Shown: positions 13,694 to 29,990 of the stretch, in pieces
How the letters are laid out: each line of letters begins with the position of its first letter
Numbering within the stretch: the stretch's first letter is position 1
Origin: Ktedonobacterales bacterium
GTDB lineage: Bacteria > Chloroflexota > Ktedonobacteria > Ktedonobacterales > JADMIN01
Direction of reading: 5' to 3'
DNA length: 32,000 nt
NCBI GenBank assembly: GCA_030167145.1
Contig: CP126532.1
Location: 1,950,001 to 1,982,000 of the forward strand
The notes under the pieces: generated by a model
The model's database searches: none
What the model was told of the DNA's origin: nothing
Seen by the model: the letters and a program-made list of their open reading frames with translations, nothing else
Translations under genes and position numbers: made by a program

Positions 13694-13817
13694 GTTCCAC
13701 CTCCACGCTCGCTGGTGACGACAATGCGGTGCAGTTTAGCTATACGTCGAGACGAGCGAAAAGCGGAAAATAGCACACTGCGATGCTTTGCATTGGTGAG
13801 ATGGTGGGCAATAGGAT

Positions 13818-13855
13818 GGGCCGGATGGGAGCGTCGTTGCCCCAACATCCGGCCC
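13818..13855 (-). terminator. terminator hairpin of the S53 peptidase gene
   Basis: GGGCCGGATG / CATCCGGCCC 10-bp stem. The loop and stem are homologous to 17300-17333. The U-tail is weak. Confidence 0.5.
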
Positions 13856-13926
13856 GGATAGTGAAACGCGCTACGAAGAACAGACTACGAGAGACGCGCT
13901 ACAGTCGCTTTCGTCGTACACGTCGC

Positions 13927-16743
13927 CTAGTAGTTCACCGTGAACGTGACGTCGTCCACGAAGAAATCGCTTGGCAGAGATGAGTCGGTCGTGCCCTTGA
14001 AGTAGATCTGCACTTGCTGGCCCTTATAGCTGGTCAGCGAAGACGTGACGTCATAGGTGAACTGCTGCCACCCATGGGCGTTGGCGTTGCACTGCGTCAG
14101 CACGGTCTTGATGGTGGCGCCGCCGCTGGTGCGGATGCGCGCGTAGAGGTAGTCGTAGCAGGTGCTGCCGGACTCATAGGTGTCAATGTAGGCCCAGAAG
14201 CTGAAGGTGGCCTTGGTCATCGTGCTGGGAATGGTCACGGTCTGCCAGATCTGGTCGGTGCAGCTATTGTAGCCGCAGAGGTAGGCGCTGTCGCTGCCGG
14301 TGTGCGGATTGGTTGGGTCTACGATCTGGTAGCCGCCGCTGGATGACTCGGACCACGGGGACTGGCCACTCTCGAAGCCGCCGTTCTGGATGAGTTGCGC
14401 GGTGTTGCCGCCGCTGCTGGCGGTGACGGTGACGGTGACGGTGGCGCTATGCGTGGCGCTGCCCTCCGTGCCCGTGACGGTGACGGTGTAGCTGCCGGTG
14501 GCAACCGATGCGCCGACACTGACGGTGAGCGTGGAGGCGGAGCCAGCAGTGACCGAGGTGGGGCTGAGCGAGGCTGTGGGGCCGCTGGGCGAGACGCTGG
14601 CGGTGAGGCTCACGGTGCCCGCGGAGCCGCTGGTGACAGCGGTGCTGATGGTAGATGTGCCATTCGCGCCCTGGGCGATGCTCAGGCTGGTCGGGCTGGC
14701 GCTGATCGAGAAGTCGTTGGCTGGCGGAGCTGTCACGGTGAAGCTGGACGATGAGGTGGCCGTGCCGTTGGGGGTGGTCACGCTGATCGTGCCGGTGGTC
14801 GCGCCAGAAGGCACGGTGGCCGTGATGCTGGTGCTGCTGCCAACGGAGAAGCTAGCCGACGTGCCGTTGAACTTGACGGCGGTGGCGCCGGTGAAGTTGG
14901 TACCGGAGATGGTGACGCTGCTGCCCACGGCGCCGGAGGTCGGGCTGAAGCTGGTGATGGTGGGCGCGCTACCGCCACTGGATCCGCCAGCGGCGTCACG
15001 GGCGAGGTTCCATACGTCGGGAGTGCCGATGCCGGAAGCCTGGTCGTAGCCGGAGGTGGCGGGGTAGAAGAGGTTGTTGCCGCTGGTCACGTCGTGATAG
15101 GCGGTGTAGGTTTGTGTGGTGTTGAAGAGAGTATAGAGTGTGGCGTGGGCGTTGCCCAGGACGGGCTTGCTGTTCGCCGCGAGATACTGGTTGGTGTCTG
15201 CCGCGACGCCTGCCCAGAGGGGAGCCGCCGCGCTGGTGCCGCCGACTTCGATCCACGGGCTGGAGCTTGAGCAGCCAGCAGCGGTGACGGAGCAGTAGAC
15301 GGAGTAGCCGGAATTGGGGTCAGCATCGGCTGAGACATCGGGCACCTGGCGCATGCCGTTGGAGTAGGAGTTGGTTGTGCCAGGGCCAGTCTGATAGCTG
15401 GGCTTGGAGAAGTAGGTGCTGAGGCCGCCGCCGCCGCCCGCGCCCTTGGGGCTGCGCGAGGTGTCACTGGGGTTGGACCAGACGGACTCAGAGGTGTAGG
15501 AACCGCCGGTGCCGGTCTGGAGGTTGGTGCCGCCGACGCCGACGACGTTGGGGTCGTCAGCGGGGGAGTCAACGGCAAGGTTGGTGTCGTTGCAATCGTA
15601 GGCGCCGGAGTCGCCGGCTGCGGCGAAGATGGCCTGGCCCTGAGAGGCGGCCTGGGTGAAGATGTTGTTGAGGGCTTGCAACTCGGTGTTGCCGGAACTG
15701 GCTTCGCAGAGGCCCCAACTGGTGCTAGCGACCTTGGCGATGTTGTCGGTGACGATCTTGTTGTAGGTGTCGTTGACGCCCTGGGTTGAGTTCGGGCCGA
15801 TGTAGATTTTTTGTGTGGCGCCAGGCGCGGTGGCTGAGACGACTTCCATGTCGAGTTCGACTTCGATGGCGCCAGCGCCAGCGGCGTTGGTCGCGCCGTC
15901 CACGAGGACGTTGGAATACTTGGCTGAGCCAAGGCTGTAGTTGCTGAGGTAGGCGTTGACGTCGCTGGACTTGTAACCGTCGAGTTCGAAGATGGCGACG
16001 GTCTGGCCGGTGCCGTCGGCGCTGCTGATGAGGGAGTTCATGTCGTAGGCGGTGCGCAGTTCGCTGGGGGTGTAGCCGCCACCAGGGCCGGTGCGCGGGG
16101 CCAGTGGACTGGCGGGCCGGTAGACGGCGACGTTATCGAGGCCGCCGATGTTGAGGATCAGTCCGGCGAGCGTGGAGGGCACCGATGGCTCTTTGGTCGG
16201 CGCGTAGACGCTGCGGCCATGGTAGGAGTAGTCGCCGATCTGGACATTGAAGGCGCGCTCGACCGCCGAGGCGGAGCCGGAGGCGTCAATCAGTGTGCGA
16301 TTGGACGAGACGGAACTGACGAGAATGCCCTGGCCGCGCAGGTAGGCCACCACGGCGTTGACGTTCGCCGTTGTGGGGGCGAACATGGAGTTGAATTGGG
16401 TGGTGGTCAGGAAGTGATGGTAGAGGCCGGAACGTGGGTCGTTCTGCGCGGCGATGAGCGCATTGAGCGCGTCGGTGTTGCGCAGATTGAGGGCGATGGA
16501 GAGCGTGAGCGCGCGATCACCAGCGGTGGCGCGCAGCGCTTTCGTATGCTTGAGACCGGGGATGAGATGGCCCGGAATGGTATACCAGCCGCTGCCCTGC
16601 CGCCCAAAGTGTTGGGATGTGGGGGCGGATTGCTGGGGTGTGGCGGAGTGGGCCGAGACGAATGCGGGGGTGATGAGCAGAACGCTCAGCGCCATCAATG
16701 CGCTGGCAATGAGTAGGGAGACACGTAGAGTCTTGCGCTTCAT
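13927..16743 (-). CDS. secreted S53 (sedolisin/kumamolisin-type) peptidase with pro-domain, IPT/TIG, Ig-like and beta-sandwich C-terminal domains
   Basis: Signal peptide [31 protein letters not shown]. Pro-kumamolisin-like activation region. Catalytic serine motif [15 protein letters not shown]-like [24 protein letters not shown]. Ig-like [14 protein letters not shown]...[14 protein letters not shown]-terminal [11 protein letters not shown]...FFVDDVTF. Confidence 0.9.
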
Positions 16744-17079
16744 TCCTCACCTCAAACTCGCGTTGCACGGCAACACCGTCGTCGCCGTGTCAGGGGTCGC
16801 CATCCTTCCAGGGGGAGTGGCACACCGGTGTGCCAGCGGCCCGTGGCAAGAGATTTCCATGCGCCAGGGGTTTGGGTCTATGCCGAGGGAATGCGCGAGG
16901 GTGTGTTGAGTGGCCGCTCCTCCTCTCCACTTGAGCGAGAGCCGATCTGCCGGTTCACCTGCCGGCGGCTCTCCGCGTGGCTGCGCCTGTCTGGCCGCGC
17001 GTATGCGCGGATGTTCACCTGCCGCCATTAGCCAAAATGCCGAAGCGGCAATACGCACTATTGACAGGCGACAGAAGAA
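16744..17079 (-). promoter_or_regulatory. long 5' leader of the S53 gene; the 3' 187 nt (16744-16930) are conserved with 20559-20747
   Basis: This is the region between the predicted -10 and the start codon. The conserved part has 5 substitutions and 2 single-nt indels relative to the paralogous leader. It contains the hairpins GGCACA-CCGG-UGUGCC (16819-16834) and CACGGC-N12-GCCGUG (16766-16789). Confidence 0.6.
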
Positions 17080-17107
17080 AGTATACTGATGTGGTGGAGT
17101 TTGTCAA
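17080..17107 (-). promoter_or_regulatory. sigma70-type promoter TTGACA-16 nt-TATACT for the S53 gene
   Basis: On the minus strand the -35 TTGACA is at 17102-17107 and the -10 TATACT at 17080-17085. The same hexamers and spacing occur at 20894-20921. Confidence 0.65.
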
Positions 17108-17290
17108 GGAGGCAAAATAAGGTGACATAAGCCCTCGGCCCTCAAGGACTGGAGCACGGCGGCGGGAGGGCGATTCCGCCTCGGCCATCAATGGTTGGAG
17201 CACGGCCGTGGAAAGGTACATTGTGCTGTCGTATGGGAAGGGGAGGAAGGCCAGCGATAGGTGAGGCGCTGTGGAGCGCGCGAGAGAGGG

Positions 17291-17333
17291 TAGATAGAAA
17301 GCCGGATAGGAGCGTGATTGCCCCTATCCGGCT
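17291..17333 (-). terminator. rho-independent terminator of the 1051-aa gene
   Basis: AGCCGGATAGG / CCTATCCGGCT stem (17300-17333), followed on the minus strand by TTTCTATCT. Confidence 0.65.
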
Positions 17334-17402
17334 CTGTTGTCGCACGCGCTATGAAGAACACACTACGTAGAACGCACTTTATTCCTCATCGCCGTGTTCA
17401 GA

Positions 17403-20400
17403 TTAGCTGACGGCCACATCGTCGTAGAGGGTGTAGGTGGCGTCGCCAGCGTAGTTGTCGTCGTGGCTGGTGAGGGTGAGTGTCACCGAATGCCCCGCCG
17501 TCACACTGCCTGAGACTTTGACCCACGTGCCAGTGTTGGTGCAGGTCTTGGCGAGCAGTGTCGTGGTGGTGTTGGATGTGTTGTCCTTGAGCGTCACGGT
17601 CGCCCAGTCATAGGTGACGGTGTCGGGGCAGACGACCTTGTACCAGAACGAGATAGAGCTTGCCCCACTCGGAATGGTGAAGGTCTGGCTGATCGAGCTA
17701 TCGCCGTTGGTCGGCGAGGTGCTGCCCGCCTGCCCAGCATAGCTGCCCGAATGGCTGCTGGTGCTGATGCTGGTGGCCGCGCCCGAAGTCGTCCAGCCGC
17801 TGAAGGCGCCTGTCTCGAAGCCAGGATTGGTGACCGGGTTCGTAATCGGCGCGCTCAGGGCCACATCGTCGTAGAGGGTGTAGGTGGCGTCGCCAGCGTA
17901 GTTGTCGTCGTGGCTGGTGAGGGTGAGTGTCACCGAATGCCCCGCCGTCACACTGCCTGAGACTTTGACCCACGTGCCAGTGTTGGTGCAGGTCTTGGCG
18001 AGCAGTGTCGTGGTGGTGTTGGATGTGTTGTCCTTGAGCGTCACGGTCGCCCAGTCATAGGTGACGGTGTCGGGGCAAACAACCTTGTACCAGAAGGTCA
18101 GCGTGCCGCTGCCACTCGGAATGGTGAAGGTCTGGCTGATCGAGCTATCGCCGTTGGTCGGCGAGGTGCTGCCCGCCTGCCCAGCATAGCTGCCCGAATG
18201 GCTGCTGGTGCTGATGCTGGTGGCCGCGCCCGAAGTCGTCCAGCCGCTGAAGGCGCCTGTCTCGAAGCCGCCGTTGGTGATACCGCCGCCACTGCTCGTA
18301 ACCGTCACACTGACGGTGGCGCTATGGGTCGCGCTGCCCTCTGTGCCGGTGACAGTGACGGTATAGGCTCCGGTGGCGACCGAAGATCCGACGGAGACCG
18401 TCAAGGTTGAGGAGTTGCCTGCCGTTACCGAGGTTGGGCTAAGCGACGCCGTTGGGCCGCTGGGCGAGACGCTCGCCGTCAGGCTGACCGTACCCGCCGA
18501 GCCGCTGGTGACAGCGGTGCTAATCGTAGACGTGCCACTGCTCCCCTGTGCGATTGACAGGCTGGTTGGGCTGGAACTAATCGAGAAGTCGTTGGTTGGC
18601 GGCGCGGTCACGGTTACCGCAACCGTGGTGTTGTGCGTCGCGCTGCCCTCCGTGCCGGTGACCGTGACGGTGTAGCTGCCGGTAGCAACCGAAGAGCCGA
18701 CGTTCACCGTAAGTGTGGACGAGTTTCCTGCCGTCACCGAGGTTGGATTCAGTGTCGCTGTTGGGCCGCTGGGCGAGACGCTCGCCGTTAGGCTAACGGT
18801 TCCGGCTGAGCCGCTGGTGACAGCGGTGCTGATGGTGGACGTGCCGCTCCCGCCCTGCTGAATCGAGAGGCTGGTCGGGCTGGAGCTGATCGAGAAGTCG
18901 TTGGTCGTTGTTCCACCACAATTGGGAAACTTGAACGAGCCGATGCGCGTCTTCCAGTTGAAGCTGCCGTTGGATGGGATATATTCGTTGGTGTACCAGA
19001 AGGTGCAGTCGTCTGCGGGATCCACCGTCATGGCGCTGTAGTCACCCCAGCGGGTGAGGGTGCCGGTCTGGGATCCAGCACCGACGATGAGGCTGGTTTC
19101 ACCCTGCGACATTTGGCCGAGCGGATCACTCGCCAGTCTTCCGGTATAGCTGATGCCCGGATGCACCGAACTGCTGGAGAGGCTGAAGCCCATCGCCATA
19201 TCGCCGGATTGGTCCTGGGCGATGCTGCCCATCCAGCGATAGCCAGAGTCAGGGGCATAGGTGCCAGACTGGTAGACGGTGGGTGTGCCGCCGGGGCTGC
19301 GAATCTCGTACCAGCGCATGCCGACCGAACTGCCTGCCGTCACCGCGTGGTCAACGACGAGGGATTCGTAGCTGCCGAAGTTGCGATAGGAGAGACGATA
19401 CATGAGGCGGTCGGCGAGCGAATCGAGCTGGTTGGTGGTGCCAGACTGCGGGATGCAGGTGCCGCCGCCGCAGGCCTGGGCGTAGGAAGTCACCGCGATG
19501 CTCGATGGGCCGGTGAAGGTGGTGTTGGCTGGCGTGGTCCAGTCTACGTGGAACTTCCAGAACGCGAGCGAGGTGGTGGTACCCAGCGCCAGAACGTAGT
19601 TCGGCGCACCCGTTGGCGGGAGGGTTGAGCCGTCCAGGTTGGAGGCCAGCAAACCGCCGTAGCTGGTGCTGGTGGTGAAGCACTGCTGGGTGGCAGCGGC
19701 GCCGCTCAGCATTTGCGAGCGGTTGAAGGCGCAGTCTTGGGCGCCGAGGAAGCTGGTGCCAGCAGCGTTGAAGAGGTTGTAGGTTTCGTAGTAGGCGTCT
19801 GGCCAGACAGCCATCTTGGGGTAGTCGGGGAAGTTGGAATAGGAGAACGAGTAGCGGTAGTAGGAGCCAGTTGGGTCACTGGTAGTGGAGACCGCTACGC
19901 ACTGATAGAAGTTGGGGTCGGGGTTGGTGACGGCGAACTGGCTGATGATCCAGCGATTTGCGATGCCGTCATAGACGACGGTAGGATCGCCGTCGTTGTC
20001 GGTCTGGCAGAGGCCGCCGAAGCCACTCCAGAGGGTGTTGATCGCAACCGGGCCGTAGCGCACAGAGCCGACCGCGCCACGTGAGGCGTCTTTGTTGAAG
20101 ACTGCGAAGTCGGTGTTGACGGTCTGTACGTAGTCTTGTGGGCCAACCGCGCCGTTGGTGTCGGGCGGGGCGGATGCGACAGTGAAGGTGCCGTTGGGGC
20201 CAGAGAAGCCGTTGCCGACGCCGTCGAAGTTATTTGAGGCTGTGGGCGCGGCTAGAGTGCCGATGTGGGTTTGGAGATACGACTTGATGTGGTTGGGCTT
20301 GCCGCGATGGACAGGCGCCAGCGTGGGGAAGTCGTCGGCGTTGTGGCCGTCGCCCTTCCAGGGCTTGCCGGGAATGGTTCGCAATGCTGGCGAGAGATCA

Positions 20401-20558
20401 TTCTTGACGGACTTGCTGACGACAGGGTGTGAGTGCTTCGGAGCCGATGTTGTTGCCGGGCGCCCGAAGACGAGTGCGGGGGTAATGAGCAGAACGCTCA
20501 GCGCCATCAATGCGCTGGCGACAATCAAAGAAATGCGTAGTGAAGTTCGTCGCTTCAT
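17403..20558 (-). CDS. secreted multidomain protein: unrecognised ~520-aa N-terminal domain, 2 Ig-like repeats, 2 tandem beta-sandwich (CBM-like) modules
   Basis: Signal peptide [32 protein letters not shown]. The N-terminal domain has DP-V-YD---RW and WGDYS motifs suggestive of a beta-propeller. There are two NDFSISSSPTSLSI...[13 protein letters not shown] repeats and two ~149-aa NGGFETGAFSGW...YTLYDDVA repeats. Confidence 0.85.
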   Translation of the reverse strand: MKRRTSLRISLIVASALMALSVLLITPALVFGRPATTSAPKHSHPVVSKSVKNDLSPALRTIPGKPWKGDGHNADDFPTLAPVHRGKPNHIKSYLQTHIGTLAAPTASNNFDGVGNGFSGPNGTFTVASAPPDTNGAVGPQDYVQTVNTDFAVFNKDASRGAVGSVRYGPVAINTLWSGFGGLCQTDNDGDPTVVYDGIANRWIISQFAVTNPDPNFYQCVAVSTTSDPTGSYYRYSFSYSNFPDYPKMAVWPDAYYETYNLFNAAGTSFLGAQDCAFNRSQMLSGAAATQQCFTTSTSYGGLLASNLDGSTLPPTGAPNYVLALGTTTSLAFWKFHVDWTTPANTTFTGPSSIAVTSYAQACGGGTCIPQSGTTNQLDSLADRLMYRLSYRNFGSYESLVVDHAVTAGSSVGMRWYEIRSPGGTPTVYQSGTYAPDSGYRWMGSIAQDQSGDMAMGFSLSSSSVHPGISYTGRLASDPLGQMSQGETSLIVGAGSQTGTLTRWGDYSAMTVDPADDCTFWYTNEYIPSNGSFNWKTRIGSFKFPNCGGTTTNDFSISSSPTSLSIQQGGSGTSTISTAVTSGSAGTVSLTASVSPSGPTATLNPTSVTAGNSSTLTVNVGSSVATGSYTVTVTGTEGSATHNTTVAVTVTAPPTNDFSISSSPTSLSIAQGSSGTSTISTAVTSGSAGTVSLTASVSPSGPTASLSPTSVTAGNSSTLTVSVGSSVATGAYTVTVTGTEGSATHSATVSVTVTSSGGGITNGGFETGAFSGWTTSGAATSISTSSHSGSYAGQAGSTSPTNGDSSISQTFTIPSGSGTLTFWYKVVCPDTVTYDWATVTLKDNTSNTTTTLLAKTCTNTGTWVKVSGSVTAGHSVTLTLTSHDDNYAGDATYTLYDDVALSAPITNPVTNPGFETGAFSGWTTSGAATSISTSSHSGSYAGQAGSTSPTNGDSSISQTFTIPSGASSISFWYKVVCPDTVTYDWATVTLKDNTSNTTTTLLAKTCTNTGTWVKVSGSVTAGHSVTLTLTSHDDNYAGDATYTLYDDVAVS
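17412..18269. repeat. 447-bp-period tandem duplication inside the 1051-aa gene
   Basis: 17412-17822 and 17859-18269 are identical by eye, apart from two single substitutions and one ~22-nt patch (17647-17668 versus 18094-18115). Confidence 0.9.
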
Positions 20559-20893
20559 TCCTCACCTCAAACTCGCGTTGCACGGCAACACCGTCGTCGC
20601 CGTGTCAGGGGCCGCCATCCTTCCAGGGGGGAGTGGCACACCGATGTGCCAACCCGCCCGTGGCAAGAGATTTCCATGCGCCAGGGGTTTGGGTCTATGC
20701 CGAGGGAATGCGCGAGGGTGTGTTGAGTGGCCGCCCCTCCTCTCCACCTGCCCACCAGCCGTCCCGACCCACCCGCGGGACGCGCTCAGTACTCGTCGCG
20801 TCTGCCGTGCCCGCAAACATACGCGGATGCGCAGCTTCTATTGGCCAGAATGCCGAAAGAGTGCTACGTATTCTTGTACAGACGACACAAGAA
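20559..20893 (-). promoter_or_regulatory. long 5' leader of the 1051-aa gene; the 3' 189 nt (20559-20747) are conserved with 16744-16930
   Basis: See 16744-17079. The upstream ~145 nt of the leader are only loosely similar between the two copies. Confidence 0.6.
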
Positions 20894-20921
20894 AGTATAC
20901 TGATGGAGTGCAGATTGTCAA
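20894..20921 (-). promoter_or_regulatory. sigma70-type promoter TTGACA-16 nt-TATACT for the 1051-aa gene
   Basis: On the minus strand the -35 is at 20916-20921 and the -10 at 20894-20899. Confidence 0.65.
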
Positions 20922-20950
20922 GGAGTCGTAAATACGTGACATAATCGCGA

Positions 20951-21095
20951 GCGGGCGATTGAAACCGCGCAGAGGGCGAGGCCAGCCTCGCCCCTACGAT
21001 GGCATGCCGCCGCGAGAGCACCGGCTGCGCGAGCTGAAAATGAAGCGGGTGTGTGCGGCAATTGGCAAAAGTGCATTATGGCCGCAGCACGGCGG
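20951..21095. repeat. mosaic of dispersed short repeats
   Basis: GCGGGCGATTGAAACCGCGC (20951-20970) matches 29856-29875 at 19/20. The GGGCGAGGC-CA-GCCTCGCCC hairpin is related to 24421-24456. GCAATTGGCAAAAGTGCATTATGGCCGCAGCAC is related to 29935-29970. Confidence 0.8.
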
Positions 21096-21148: not shown

Positions 21149-21225
21149 GGGCGATTAGCTCAGTTGGTTAGAGCGCCACGTTGACATCGTGGAGGTCGGG
21201 GATTCGAGCTCCTCATCGCCCACCA
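21149..21225 (+). tRNA. tRNA-Val: tRNA-Val (anticodon GAC) with encoded CCA
   Basis: Cloverleaf: acceptor GGGCGAT/ATCGCCC, D-arm GCTC-AGTTGGTTA-GAGC, anticodon stem CCACG/CGTGG with loop TTGACAT, T-arm GGGGA-TTCGAGC-TCCTC, then ACCA. Confidence 0.95.
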
Positions 21226-21236
21226 GAAATCTTGAG

Positions 21237-21268
21237 AGCCGCCGGGGAAGCACCCTGGCGGCTTTGTG
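21237..21268 (+). terminator. terminator hairpin after tRNA-Val
   Basis: AGCCGCCGGGG-AAGCA-CCCTGGCGGCT followed by TTGTGG. Confidence 0.55.
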
Positions 21269-21335
21269 GTATGCTGAGGTCACGCTCGGTGATCACTACG
21301 GTTGCGGCACGACTGACGAGATGGGAGGCACGAAC

Positions 21336-21617
21336 ATGAGCCATACAGTTCAGGTGCCTGACGAGCTATATGACAAACTCGCCAGCTATGCGAGAGAGCA
21401 GGGTTCGACACCTGACGATATGCTGATTGCCTGGGTAGCTGAGATTGTGCGGCGGACGGAAGAGCGTCAAGCGCGCCAGGAGGAAGCGGAAGAAGTGGCG
21501 GACGATCCCATCGCGCCGTTCATTGGCGCATTCACGTTTGGTGTGGGCGACCTGGCCGAGCGGCATGATAGCTATCTGGCGGAGGGTTATGCGAACACAC
21601 GTGAGCCTGGAGAGTAG
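21336..21617 (+). CDS. VapB-like antitoxin
   Basis: 93-aa ORF MSHTVQVPDELYDKLASYAREQGSTPDDMLIAWV... with a GGGAGG SD. It overlaps the start of the downstream PIN gene. Confidence 0.65.
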   Translation: MSHTVQVPDELYDKLASYAREQGSTPDDMLIAWVAEIVRRTEERQARQEEAEEVADDPIAPFIGAFTFGVGDLAERHDSYLAEGYANTREPGE

Positions 21618-22029
21618 TATCTTCGTTGATACGTCAGGATGGGTGAGTCTCATCGGCGAAGATGAGACATTTCACGATGAGATTACGGCTATCTATCAGG
21701 AAGCGATGCGGCAGAGATGCCGTTTGATCACCACCAACTATATCGTGACCGAAGTGGTGGCGCTGCTGACCAATCGCCCAATTGTTCCGCGTCAACGCAT
21801 GATTGCCTTTGTGGACGCGCTGAAAGCCGCGCCGCATGTGCAGATCGAGTTTGTTGATCGCGCCATAGATGATGTTGCCTGGGTGCGTATCAAGGAACGA
21901 TCAGAACGAGATTGGTCGTTGGTGGATGCGAGCAGCTTCATTTTGATGGAGCAGTTCAACGTCATCCAGGCATTGACGCTGGACCACCATTTTGAGCAGG
22001 CTGGATTCATTCGATTGCCCACTCCATAG
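21589..22029 (+). CDS. vapC: PIN-domain toxin (VapC family)
   Basis: The acidic PIN residues are in the expected order: IFVDTSGW, VTEVV, LVDASSF, TLDHHF. The start is ATG 21589 or GTG 21601, overlapping the antitoxin stop. Confidence 0.8.
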   Translation: MRTHVSLESSIFVDTSGWVSLIGEDETFHDEITAIYQEAMRQRCRLITTNYIVTEVVALLTNRPIVPRQRMIAFVDALKAAPHVQIEFVDRAIDDVAWVRIKERSERDWSLVDASSFILMEQFNVIQALTLDHHFEQAGFIRLPTP

Positions 22030-24323: not shown

Positions 24324-24489
24324 ATGGCCGGAGCACAACCGAGGGTGGCCCGCCTCGGCCATAAATTGCCGGAGCACACCCGATGGGCATAAATGCCGCA
24401 GAGCGGGCGGGCGGATGAAGCCCCGCAGGGGCGAGGCCTGCCTCGCCCCTGCGGGGGATGTGGCAGGCAGACAAGAATGTCCGCCCCAC
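24324..24489. repeat. dispersed-repeat mosaic inside the operon gap
   Basis: ATGGCCGGAGCACAACCG (24324-24341) matches 29957-29974 at 18/18. A perfect 17-bp inverted repeat CCCCGCAGGGGCGAGGC-CT-GCCTCGCCCCTGCGGGG lies at 24421-24456. GGCAGGCAGACAAGAATGTCCGCCCCAC lies at 24462-24489. Confidence 0.85.
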
Positions 24490-26899: not shown

Positions 26900-27820
26900 T
26901 TGAGCGATTCGGAGAACACGAACACCACTGATAGTGATGACTCCCAGGATGACGCTAAGGCAGGGTTTGATTCCATCCGCCAGATCAGCCCCTATGGCGC
27001 GGAGTATTGGAGTGCACGGGATCTGTATCTCTTGCTCGGCTACGACACTTGGCGACGGTTTGAAACAGCCATCGAGCGCGCAAAAATAGCCTGTGCGAAC
27101 ATGGGCGAAGAGGTCGCCGATCATTTTGCCGGAGCCGTCAAGATGATCGAGGTCGGCAAAGGCGCGCAGCGAGAAGCCAGTGACTATGCGCTCTCGCGCT
27201 TCGGCTGCTACCTCACGGCCATGAACGGCGACCCACGCAAGCCAGAGATCGCGAATGCCCAGGGATACTTCGCAGTCCAGACGCGCCGAATGGAGCAATG
27301 GGACGAACTGCGCGAGTCGCTTGCTGAGCGTGCCGAGCGGCGGCAGCAACTTACGGAAGCTAACAAGCACTTGAATGCGACTGCGCAGGTACATGGACTG
27401 GAGCGCCACTCGTTCGGGCGTCTCCACGACGCTGGGACAAAGGGCCTTTATGGTGGTCGGTCAGTTCATGACCTGAAGACAATCAAAGGGATTGCGGGGA
27501 AAGAGGACTTCGCCGACCGCATGGGACTGGAGGAGTTGGCCGCGAACCTTTTTGTACGCACGCAAACCGAGGCCAAGGTGCGCAATGAACAGATACGGGG
27601 CAGCGATGCAATCGTGGGCGCGCACTACGAGGTGGGCGCAGAAACGCGGACGGTCATCGAGCGAATCGGCGGCACCAAGCCAGAGGAACTGCCAGCAGAG
27701 CCATCCATTCGTCCGCTACTTGCCCAACGTGAGCGCCAGAGCAAGAAGCAACTTCCGCAGCAAGATGGACCGACGCTCTTTGATGATCTTGGGCCATCCG
27801 ATGACGATAAGCCCCAATAG
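26900..27820 (+). CDS. dinD: DNA-damage-inducible protein D (DinD) family
   Basis: FDSIRQISPYGAEYWSARDLYLLLGYDTWRRFETAIERAK...YALSRFGCYLTAMNGDPRKPEIANAQGYFA...RLHDAGTKGLYGG matches my recollection of DinD proteins. TTG start with a GGAGG SD 6 nt upstream. Confidence 0.7.
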   Translation: MSDSENTNTTDSDDSQDDAKAGFDSIRQISPYGAEYWSARDLYLLLGYDTWRRFETAIERAKIACANMGEEVADHFAGAVKMIEVGKGAQREASDYALSRFGCYLTAMNGDPRKPEIANAQGYFAVQTRRMEQWDELRESLAERAERRQQLTEANKHLNATAQVHGLERHSFGRLHDAGTKGLYGGRSVHDLKTIKGIAGKEDFADRMGLEELAANLFVRTQTEAKVRNEQIRGSDAIVGAHYEVGAETRTVIERIGGTKPEELPAEPSIRPLLAQRERQSKKQLPQQDGPTLFDDLGPSDDDKPQ

Positions 27821-29850: not shown

Positions 29851-29990
29851 CCGGAGCGGGCGGTTGAAACCGCGCCTGTATGGCGTGCCGCCGCAAAGCC
29901 CGCCTGCGCGGGCTGGAGATGGAGTGGATGTCCGCAGCAATTGGTAAGAGTGCATCATGGCCGGAGCACAACCGCGAGGACATAAATGCC
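29851..29990. repeat. dispersed-repeat mosaic
   Basis: It shares modules with 20951-21095 and 24324-24400: GCGGGCGGTTGAAACCGCGC, GCAATTGGTAAGAGTGCATCATGGCCGGAGCACAACCG and CATAAATGCC. Confidence 0.8.

Follow-up and report, generated by a model that had tools for sequence, protein, structure and literature searches.

How did two neighbouring genes whose proteins have unrelated N-terminal heads come to carry almost the same 5' leader and signal-peptide core? The question is raised by a 32,000-nucleotide (nt) stretch of a Ktedonobacterales genome (contig CP126532.1, positions 1,950,001 to 1,982,000; hereafter the window), in which gene A, encoding an S53 sedolisin-type peptidase, and gene B, encoding a protein with a beta-propeller head, lie in tandem and in the same orientation on the minus strand, 3.8 kb apart (Table 1). 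The near-identity appears to be best explained by lineage-specific replacement of the flanks combined with short-tract gene conversion between the two neighbours, a reading to which we attach a probability of about 0.7. The locus gives a clear instance, from a phylum that has been little studied, of an evolutionary process already known, and no new mechanism is required; its interest is that recombination can carry a whole set of signals (promoter, 5' leader, ribosome-binding region, signal-peptide core, terminator) from one gene to another with an unrelated head.

Promoter, leader and signal peptide shared by genes A and B

Direct-repeat search, pairwise alignment, blastn and identity in 30-column blocks were used to delimit the shared parts, and revealed a 5' homology block (16656-17130 against 20468-20944) with 81% identity over 483 nt (blastn, E 5e-124). 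The common promoter that a first-pass annotation of the window had proposed, TTGACA-16-TATACT, was recovered in front of both genes with 11 of 12 consensus matches each, and the two promoter blocks are 82% identical over 67 nt (about 83% in 30-column blocks). The first ~140 nt of the predicted leader (16935-17072 in gene A) are about 60% identical between the genes. The near-identical leader end, also described earlier, proved to be one part of this mosaic 5' block: the last ~200 nt, start codon included, are ~97% identical; within them, stretches of 80 and 106 nt reach 99% and 93%, respectively, and two 1-nt insertions or deletions (indels) separate the copies.

The signal peptides repeat this patchiness on a smaller scale. 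Both proteins begin with MKR(K/R), codons 3-12 are just ~60% identical at the DNA level, and codons 13-29 are 96% identical over 52 nt, third (silent) positions included, in agreement with the shared signal-peptide start that had been reported; past codon 29 the proteins are unrelated. As the near-identity extends to silent sites, the leader and signal-peptide tracts are probably young. A miniature inverted-repeat transposable element or other mobile element was considered as the source of the identical tract and rejected, because in both genes the tract runs into the Shine-Dalgarno sequence, start codon and signal peptide, and it has no terminal repeats.

Table 1. Features of genes A and B in the window, and the related slot in four comparison loci
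Feature	Position	Strand	Basis or remark
Gene A	13927-16743	-	938 aa; S53 sedolisin-type peptidase
Gene A IPT/TIG domain	14737-14964	-	Pfam TIG
Gene A Ig-like module, single	14419-14718	-	module alignment
Gene A MAM/InhA-like beta-sandwich	13930-14409	-	Pfam InhA-like_MAM
Gene A promoter block	17064-17130	-	TTGACA-16-TATACT at 17107-17080; 11/12 consensus matches
Gene A 5' leader, predicted	16744-17072	-	~330 nt; start inferred from -10 box alone
Near-identical tract, A copy	16736-16934	-	last ~190 nt of leader, Shine-Dalgarno, first 2-3 codons
Signal-peptide h-region tract, A	16656-16707	-	codons 13-29; 96% over 52 nt
3' UTR motif and terminator hairpin, A	13818-13900	-	hairpin 13818-13855; -29.7 kcal/mol, z -4.3
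Gene B	17403-20558	-	1051 aa; beta-propeller head, two Ig-like and two CBM_4_9-like modules
Gene B head	18900-20450	-	beta-propeller model
Gene B Ig-like modules	18603-18902, 18294-18593	-	module alignment
Gene B CBM_4_9-like beta-sandwiches	17853-18280, 17406-17833	-	95% mutual identity
Gene B promoter block	20878-20944	-	TTGACA-16-TATACT at 20921-20894; 11/12 consensus matches
Gene B 5' leader, predicted	20559-20886	-	~330 nt; start inferred from -10 box alone
Near-identical tract, B copy	20551-20751	-	~97% identical to A copy
Signal-peptide h-region tract, B	20468-20519	-	codons 13-29; not native to B family
3' UTR motif and terminator hairpin, B	17298-17378	-	hairpin 17298-17335; -29.8 kcal/mol, z -6.0
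Ada/MGMT-185-aa slot	L004 8487-13973; L006 1781-6677; L007 1683-6366; L005 1-6937		
aa, amino acids; Ig, immunoglobulin; UTR, untranslated region; CBM, carbohydrate-binding module; L004 to L007, related loci.

The flanks in related genomes

The source sequence is a metagenome-assembled genome (MAG), the contig of which (JGI 3300045419 Ga0494333_323) measures 5.07 Mb; the G+C content of the window is 62.6%. The comparison loci comprised three loci with B orthologues and 80 S53 loci from GTDB genomes; motif searches were run over 84 related loci, and the comparison proteins numbered 240 homologues, both window proteins included. The nearest orthologues in protein searches were 77-84% identical to protein A and 80% identical to protein B. 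From the 5.07-Mb source contig itself, each protein search (A, B) returned the query alone among its top 120 matches, which argues weakly against paralogues.

No counterpart of the window leader, signal-peptide DNA or 3' UTR was present in the 84 related S53 and B loci. The first-pass annotation had proposed a search for further genes with the shell; searches with the leader and the 3' UTR brought to light no such genes in the 84 loci. The signal-peptide core motif was found in 2 of the 240 homologous proteins, namely window A and B, and was absent from the other 238. An exact 22-nt leader pattern gave no match in collections of metagenome and genome contigs that exclude the source contig, and a degenerate DNA pattern for the signal-peptide core gave none in the JGI metagenome contigs; a profile search with the two signal peptides produced 31 word-sharing candidates, none of them at E <= 10, and is regarded as uninformative.

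What the relatives share is a promoter type, TTGAC-N17-TATACT on the gene strand, and not flank sequence. Upstream of the gene in each case, this promoter stands at a distance of ~225-335 nt from the nearest S53 orthologues (L006, L007, L008, L011, L015) and of ~600 nt from those of B (L004, L005), with a chance expectation, by our own estimate from base composition, of ~0.1 matches in the 672 kb searched. Leaders of orthologues drift at about the rate of synonymous sites: L006 and L007 are 64% identical in the leader and 65% at third codon positions, and L004 and L005 are 68% (globally) and 57% identical, respectively. The leader of window A reaches 45-51% against L006 and L007, where shuffled sequences have a mean of 43% and a maximum of 48%, and local alignments of the window leaders with the S53 and B leaders of relatives were no better than those of shuffles. 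Since the relatives lack this leader and orthologous leaders drift like silent sites, the near-identity of A and B is taken to reflect recent copying and not long-term constraint on an RNA. The non-coding shell thus appears to be specific to the lineage of this genome and not a conserved cassette.

The leaders of the B orthologues (L004 9410-10000; L005 2438-3044) are alignable with each other, their last ~510 nt falling in a ~78% blastn alignment that reaches the coding region; their overall identity (68%) is somewhat above that at third codon positions (57%).

Several features of gene B bear on where its flanks came from. Its leader, at ~330 nt, resembles that of window A and falls within the S53 range, whereas those of B orthologues measure ~600 nt. 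The nearest B orthologues possess a different signal peptide (consensus MSRxVxxKVSIG..VGFP..SAASPS), and the n/h region of window B is unlike it, while the c-region and mature N-terminus match the B family. The c-regions of the two window proteins are distinct, with cleavage sites predicted by eye at ..FVSA|HSA and ..LVFG|RPA. The S53-like leader length and the non-native n/h region together suggest that a B coding body sits in S53-type flanks. At the other end of the gene, L004, L005 and L006 share a 3' UTR and terminator of their own, and the two of the window resemble each other alone.

The 3' end and the C-terminal modules

The common 3' UTR and homologous hairpins noted at first reading were found again (13820-13900 against 17301-17378, 78% over 82 nt); both hairpins are strong and differ by one compensatory G:C to A:U change. 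The 3' UTR motif CGTAGTSTGTTCTTCRTAGCGCG occurs at two sites only, those of genes A and B, across the window and the 84 related loci.

The coding modules tell of a different age. Ig-like modules are indeed present once in A and twice in B, as had been described, and the window copies share 87-91% protein identity and 79-80% DNA identity. At third codon positions they are 53-58% identical within the window against 35-61% between genomes, values that indicate saturated synonymous sites; because these positions have diverged to the between-genome level, the Ig modules are probably old and held by selection on the protein. The C-terminal beta-sandwich had also been listed as common to both genes, and this stands for the NGGFE start only: the domain is MAM/InhA-like in A and CBM_4_9-like in B, and the rest can barely be aligned (BLASTP E 0.008). 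The other five listed elements were recovered where the first-pass annotation had placed them, at levels well above chance expectation.

Exchange of heads and tails among relatives

Related genomes show how such genes are reassembled. L004, L006 and L007 have a slot in common, flanked by an Ada/MGMT gene of opposite orientation and, downstream, by a gene of 185-187 aa; its occupant is the beta-propeller gene in L004 and an S53 gene in the other two. L006 and L004 have in common a tail of Ig plus two CBM modules together with ~80 nt of 3' UTR (75% over 1287 nt), and L006 and L007 are 81% identical from the promoter to the Ig module, after which they differ in tail type. In L005, the flanks of which are 91.5% identical to those of L007, a partial S53 gene is followed by a B gene, upstream of the 185-aa gene.

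Four tail layouts were found among the S53 orthologues, namely Ig plus two CBM (L006, L011, L013), TIG plus two CBM (L008), Ig plus MAM-like (L007) and TIG plus Ig plus MAM-like (the window), and the top 120 B homologues have 35 tail arrangements. In its CBM-pair tail, the B gene of L005 shares 85% identity with the S53 genes of L006 and L013 but just 74% with the B gene of L004, its orthologue by the head; the heads of these two B genes share 82% identity. The phylogeny of the tails thus conflicts with that of the heads. The promoter region of L005 B likewise scores 0.77-0.79 against the L007 S53 promoter and 0.61-0.71 against its orthologue in L004, and we read it as a second case of 5' exchange between the S53 and B families. 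These comparisons indicate that the heads and tails of the two families are exchangeable over evolutionary time. Head replacement at one slot, together with the trading of tails, illustrates in concrete terms the diversification of the large, paralogue-rich secretomes of Ktedonobacteria. The cassette with exchangeable payloads put forward by the first-pass annotation therefore holds insofar as common signals surround unrelated heads, and heads and tails are exchanged among relatives, and fails insofar as the non-coding shell is not conserved.

Paired CBM modules within one gene were 79-95% identical in five genomes, and 63-77% identical between most genomes. Since similarity within genes exceeds that between genomes, concerted evolution within the gene is indicated, and gene conversion is evidently routine in this family. 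Such homogenisation of paired CBM modules is seen in the window (17406-17833 against 17853-18280) and also in L004, L005, L006 and L002.

Origin of the shared flanks

A and B belong to two widespread Ktedonobacterales families of modular proteins with predicted Sec export, one with an S53 head and the other with an uncharacterised beta-propeller head, both of which draw on one pool of C-terminal Ig-like and beta-sandwich modules and use strong TTGAC-N17-TATACT promoters with long 5' leaders. Lineage-specific recombination would then have given the tandem A and B homologous non-coding flanks and a homologous n/h segment in their signal peptides, most likely by placing the beta-propeller coding body inside S53-type flanks (a presumed direction of A to B), and parts of the flanks would later have been re-homogenised by short-tract interlocus gene conversion. 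Two patterns characteristic of conversion were observed: over the leader tract, A and B have ~97% identity, while orthologous leaders match it at the level of shuffled sequence; and silent sites are identical inside the tracts and diverged outside them, with abrupt boundaries (adjacent blocks ~60%). Given the near-identical promoter, ribosome-binding region, signal-peptide core and terminator, A and B are probably co-expressed and exported alike, their transcription starts, co-regulation and secretion being predicted from these signals.

Several points weigh against this explanation. The collections searched exclude the source contig, so further copies of the shell elsewhere are possible, and no relative more than 90% identical was found in the databases by which the events might be dated. 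The direction from A to B rests on leader length and a weak likeness of the n-region (MKRxxLR), and local alignments detected no homologue of the window leader in either family. The divergent 35 nt (codons 3-12) that lie between near-identical tracts require conversion to have been patchy or repeated. The promoter (83%) and 3' UTR (78%) exceed silent-site similarity, which could reflect selection rather than age. Conversion is, moreover, read from patterns of identity.

An alternative is that the late-leader tract is a cis-regulatory RNA (a sensor, a target of a small RNA or protein, or an element of translation control) kept identical by purifying selection. No other part of the shell is as well conserved as this tract, which extends to the Shine-Dalgarno sequence and start codon and contains hairpins such as GGCACACCGGTGTGCC; in relatives, both families have likewise retained a strong promoter followed by a long leader. 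However, no Rfam match was obtained at the gathering score in the window, nor at E up to 5 in 16650-17450, the folds are no more stable than those of shuffled sequence (z -0.55 and +0.95), and two 1-nt indels fall within the tract. The orthologous leaders of relatives drift like silent sites and have nothing in common with the window leader, and the silent codon positions of the adjacent signal-peptide tract are equally identical, which selection on the leader, at the RNA or the protein level, does not explain. On balance we consider this alternative unlikely.

The open reading frames (ORFs) of the leader (16747-17058 and 20562-20816) were examined as coding upstream ORFs and rejected as non-coding, because the two 1-nt indels shift the frame between the copies. 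A terminator-like hairpin with a T-run (TGCCGCTTCGGCA TTTTGG) occurs at 17038-17050 on the minus strand, ~25-35 nt past the predicted transcription start of gene A; in the B counterpart the 5' arm of the TGCCGCTTCGGCA hairpin is altered. This early-leader hairpin could be an attenuator or due to chance.

A broader proposal goes beyond the replacement of flanks and conversion between neighbours, and would make the secreted-protein genes of Ktedonobacterales a combinatorial set, in which the Ig module and the homogenised flanks serve as recombination scaffolds for the reassortment of heads and tails and the leader is kept for the sake of one regulatory input. If it held, swappable secreted proteins across the genome would form one regulon, recognisable by the shell, and the locus would be no local accident; for the present we treat it as doubtful speculation.

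A single recent tandem duplication followed by replacement of the catalytic head, the scenario that the first-pass annotation itself had set against its cassette, would account for both flanks by one event and suits genes that are adjacent, in the same orientation and alike in both 5' and 3' flanks. Yet a single event does not accord with identity as uneven as that observed (late leader 97%, early leader ~60%, 3' UTR 78%, silent sites of the Ig modules saturated), nor with C-terminal beta-sandwiches of different types. Both full architectures also occur independently across Ktedonobacterales, so that neither gene is a recent derivative of the other, and we regard the duplication scenario as rather improbable.

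Still less credible is a programmed system of cassette exchange or phase variation with the 5' region as its recombination site, as in mycoplasma vsp/vpma loci or shufflons. The clustered vpma/vsp lipoprotein genes are typified by unrelated bodies that follow a conserved 5' UTR and signal-peptide region (PMC2268961), and heads and tails have been exchanged among the relatives of A and B. At the vpma/vsp loci, however, a Xer-type recombinase adjoins the genes, only one expression site is active and switching occurs at high frequency, and nothing of this kind is seen at the A/B locus: A and B each have a complete promoter and start codon, the copies are in direct and not inverted orientation with weak inverted repeats alone around the locus, none of the genes in the 32-kb window proved to encode a domain of a recombinase, integrase or transposase, and the window holds two copies of the shell and no silent cassettes. 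An assembly artefact (a collapsed or chimeric repeat), which the metagenomic origin of the contig might bring to mind, can practically be set aside, as the copies differ by substitutions and indels and sit in different, intact ORFs with their frames preserved, and the identical stretches do not exceed 80 nt, with graded similarity continuing on both sides.

Comparison with known conversion systems

The tufA/tufB pair is the classical bacterial example of interlocus gene conversion and concerted evolution. Like such systems, A and B have within-genome copies that are more alike than orthologues, homogenised silent sites, abrupt mosaic tract boundaries and copies that lie close together in direct orientation, and conversion acts, in addition, on the tandem CBM modules inside these genes. 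They differ from the classical cases in that the tracts consist mainly of non-coding signals and a signal-peptide core attached to unrelated heads, and not of whole paralogous coding regions.

Another parallel may be xynB/xynC of Pseudomonas fluorescens subsp. cellulosa, adjacent genes for modular, secreted enzymes of polysaccharide degradation that reportedly have identical 5' regions for the signal peptide and cellulose-binding domain. If so, both pairs are neighbours with different catalytic domains in which a signal peptide and binding modules have been copied at the DNA level. In A and B, by contrast, the common binding modules lie at the C-terminus and diverged long ago, recent copying having affected the promoter, leader, signal-peptide core and 3' UTR instead, and the host is a soil member of the Chloroflexota.

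The encoded proteins

The predicted gene A product consists, in order, of a signal peptide, a pro-kumamolisin activation domain, an S53 catalytic domain, an IPT/TIG domain (missing from the elements first listed for this gene), an Ig-like module and a MAM/InhA-like beta-sandwich. The pro domain matches Pfam PF09286 (Pro-kuma_activ; E 4.7e-32, residues 69-204), and alignment with pro-kumamolisin 1t1e (E 2.8e-47) puts IEVELD, AAAGDSG and GGTSAAAP opposite the corresponding kumamolisin motifs, to which established knowledge of the S53 family assigns the catalytic Ser-Glu-Asp and oxyanion Asp roles. By its pro domain and catalytic motifs, gene A is accordingly classed with the sedolisin/kumamolisin family S53. 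The characterised S53 enzymes (MEROPS) have the same combination of pro domain with catalytic Glu/Asp, oxyanion Asp and Ser motifs, but are without the long TIG, Ig-like and MAM-like C-terminal extension of gene A. The JGI label 'kumamolisin' agrees with this evidence, and the NCBI label 'Chitinase' appears to derive from the Ig-like/beta-sandwich tail and not from the head.

The gene B product has a signal peptide, a head of ~500 aa, two Ig-like modules and two CBM_4_9-like beta-sandwiches, the coding sequences of which are 95.4% identical over 432 nt. Its tail scored 24.9 bits against Pfam CBM_4_9, just under the cut-off of 25.9, and several homologues carry PF02018 in precomputed annotation. 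The head had no match in Pfam or NCBIfam and no sequence match in the PDB at E up to 10. Modelled on its own with AlphaFold from 71 sequences, the head nevertheless gave a confident structure (predicted local distance difference test 91, predicted template modelling score 0.92), a beta-propeller, for which the PDB offered assorted, generic beta-propellers alone (template modelling score 0.2-0.4). The full-length search returned 7,941 proteins at E <= 0.001; the head was present in all 120 of the top matches, and its family possesses invariant motifs such as RWGDYS and CTFWYTNEY. The head thus represents a very large family (more than 7,900 gene B homologues) that lacks a Pfam model and can now be modelled with confidence as a beta-propeller.

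The top Foldseek match of the full-length gene B model was the 68-kDa sialidase of Micromonospora viridifaciens, with the same order of folds (beta-propeller, Ig-like linker, carbohydrate-binding module). There is, however, no sequence similarity between the two, and the head-only model matched just generic propellers. Membership of the sialidase family GH33 was considered for the head and is not claimed, in view of the lack of a sequence or close structural match and of assignable catalytic residues; judging from the model, gene B is a probable glycan- or substrate-binding propeller protein. Of the two secreted enzymes originally described, therefore, A stands as an S53 peptidase, and B has a head without assignable catalytic residues. 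The NCBI label of gene B, 'Na-Ca exchanger/integrin-beta4', again appears to derive from the Ig-like/beta-sandwich tail and not from the head.

Surroundings of the two genes

Between the terminator of B and the promoter of A lie two tandem 38-nt units (17133-17170 and 17179-17216) that are 79% identical. Upstream of the B promoter are two intergenic repeats, one pairing 20999-21090 with 29880-29969 (80% over 92 nt) and the other 20947-20998 with 24403-24456 (85% over 52 nt); the latter matches in both orientations and is hence palindromic. These short repeats may be REP-like (repetitive extragenic palindromic) elements.

On the opposite strand, and upstream of the B promoter by ~230 nt, lies a tRNA-Val(GAC) gene (21149-21225, plus strand), directly followed by a 117-aa gene (21264-21617, plus strand) and a PIN-domain gene (21601-22029, plus strand) that resemble a VapBC-type toxin-antitoxin pair. 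The neighbourhood of the tRNA may point to a region that was acquired or rearranged. Further on, a gene for a Bro-N protein occupies 26900-27820.

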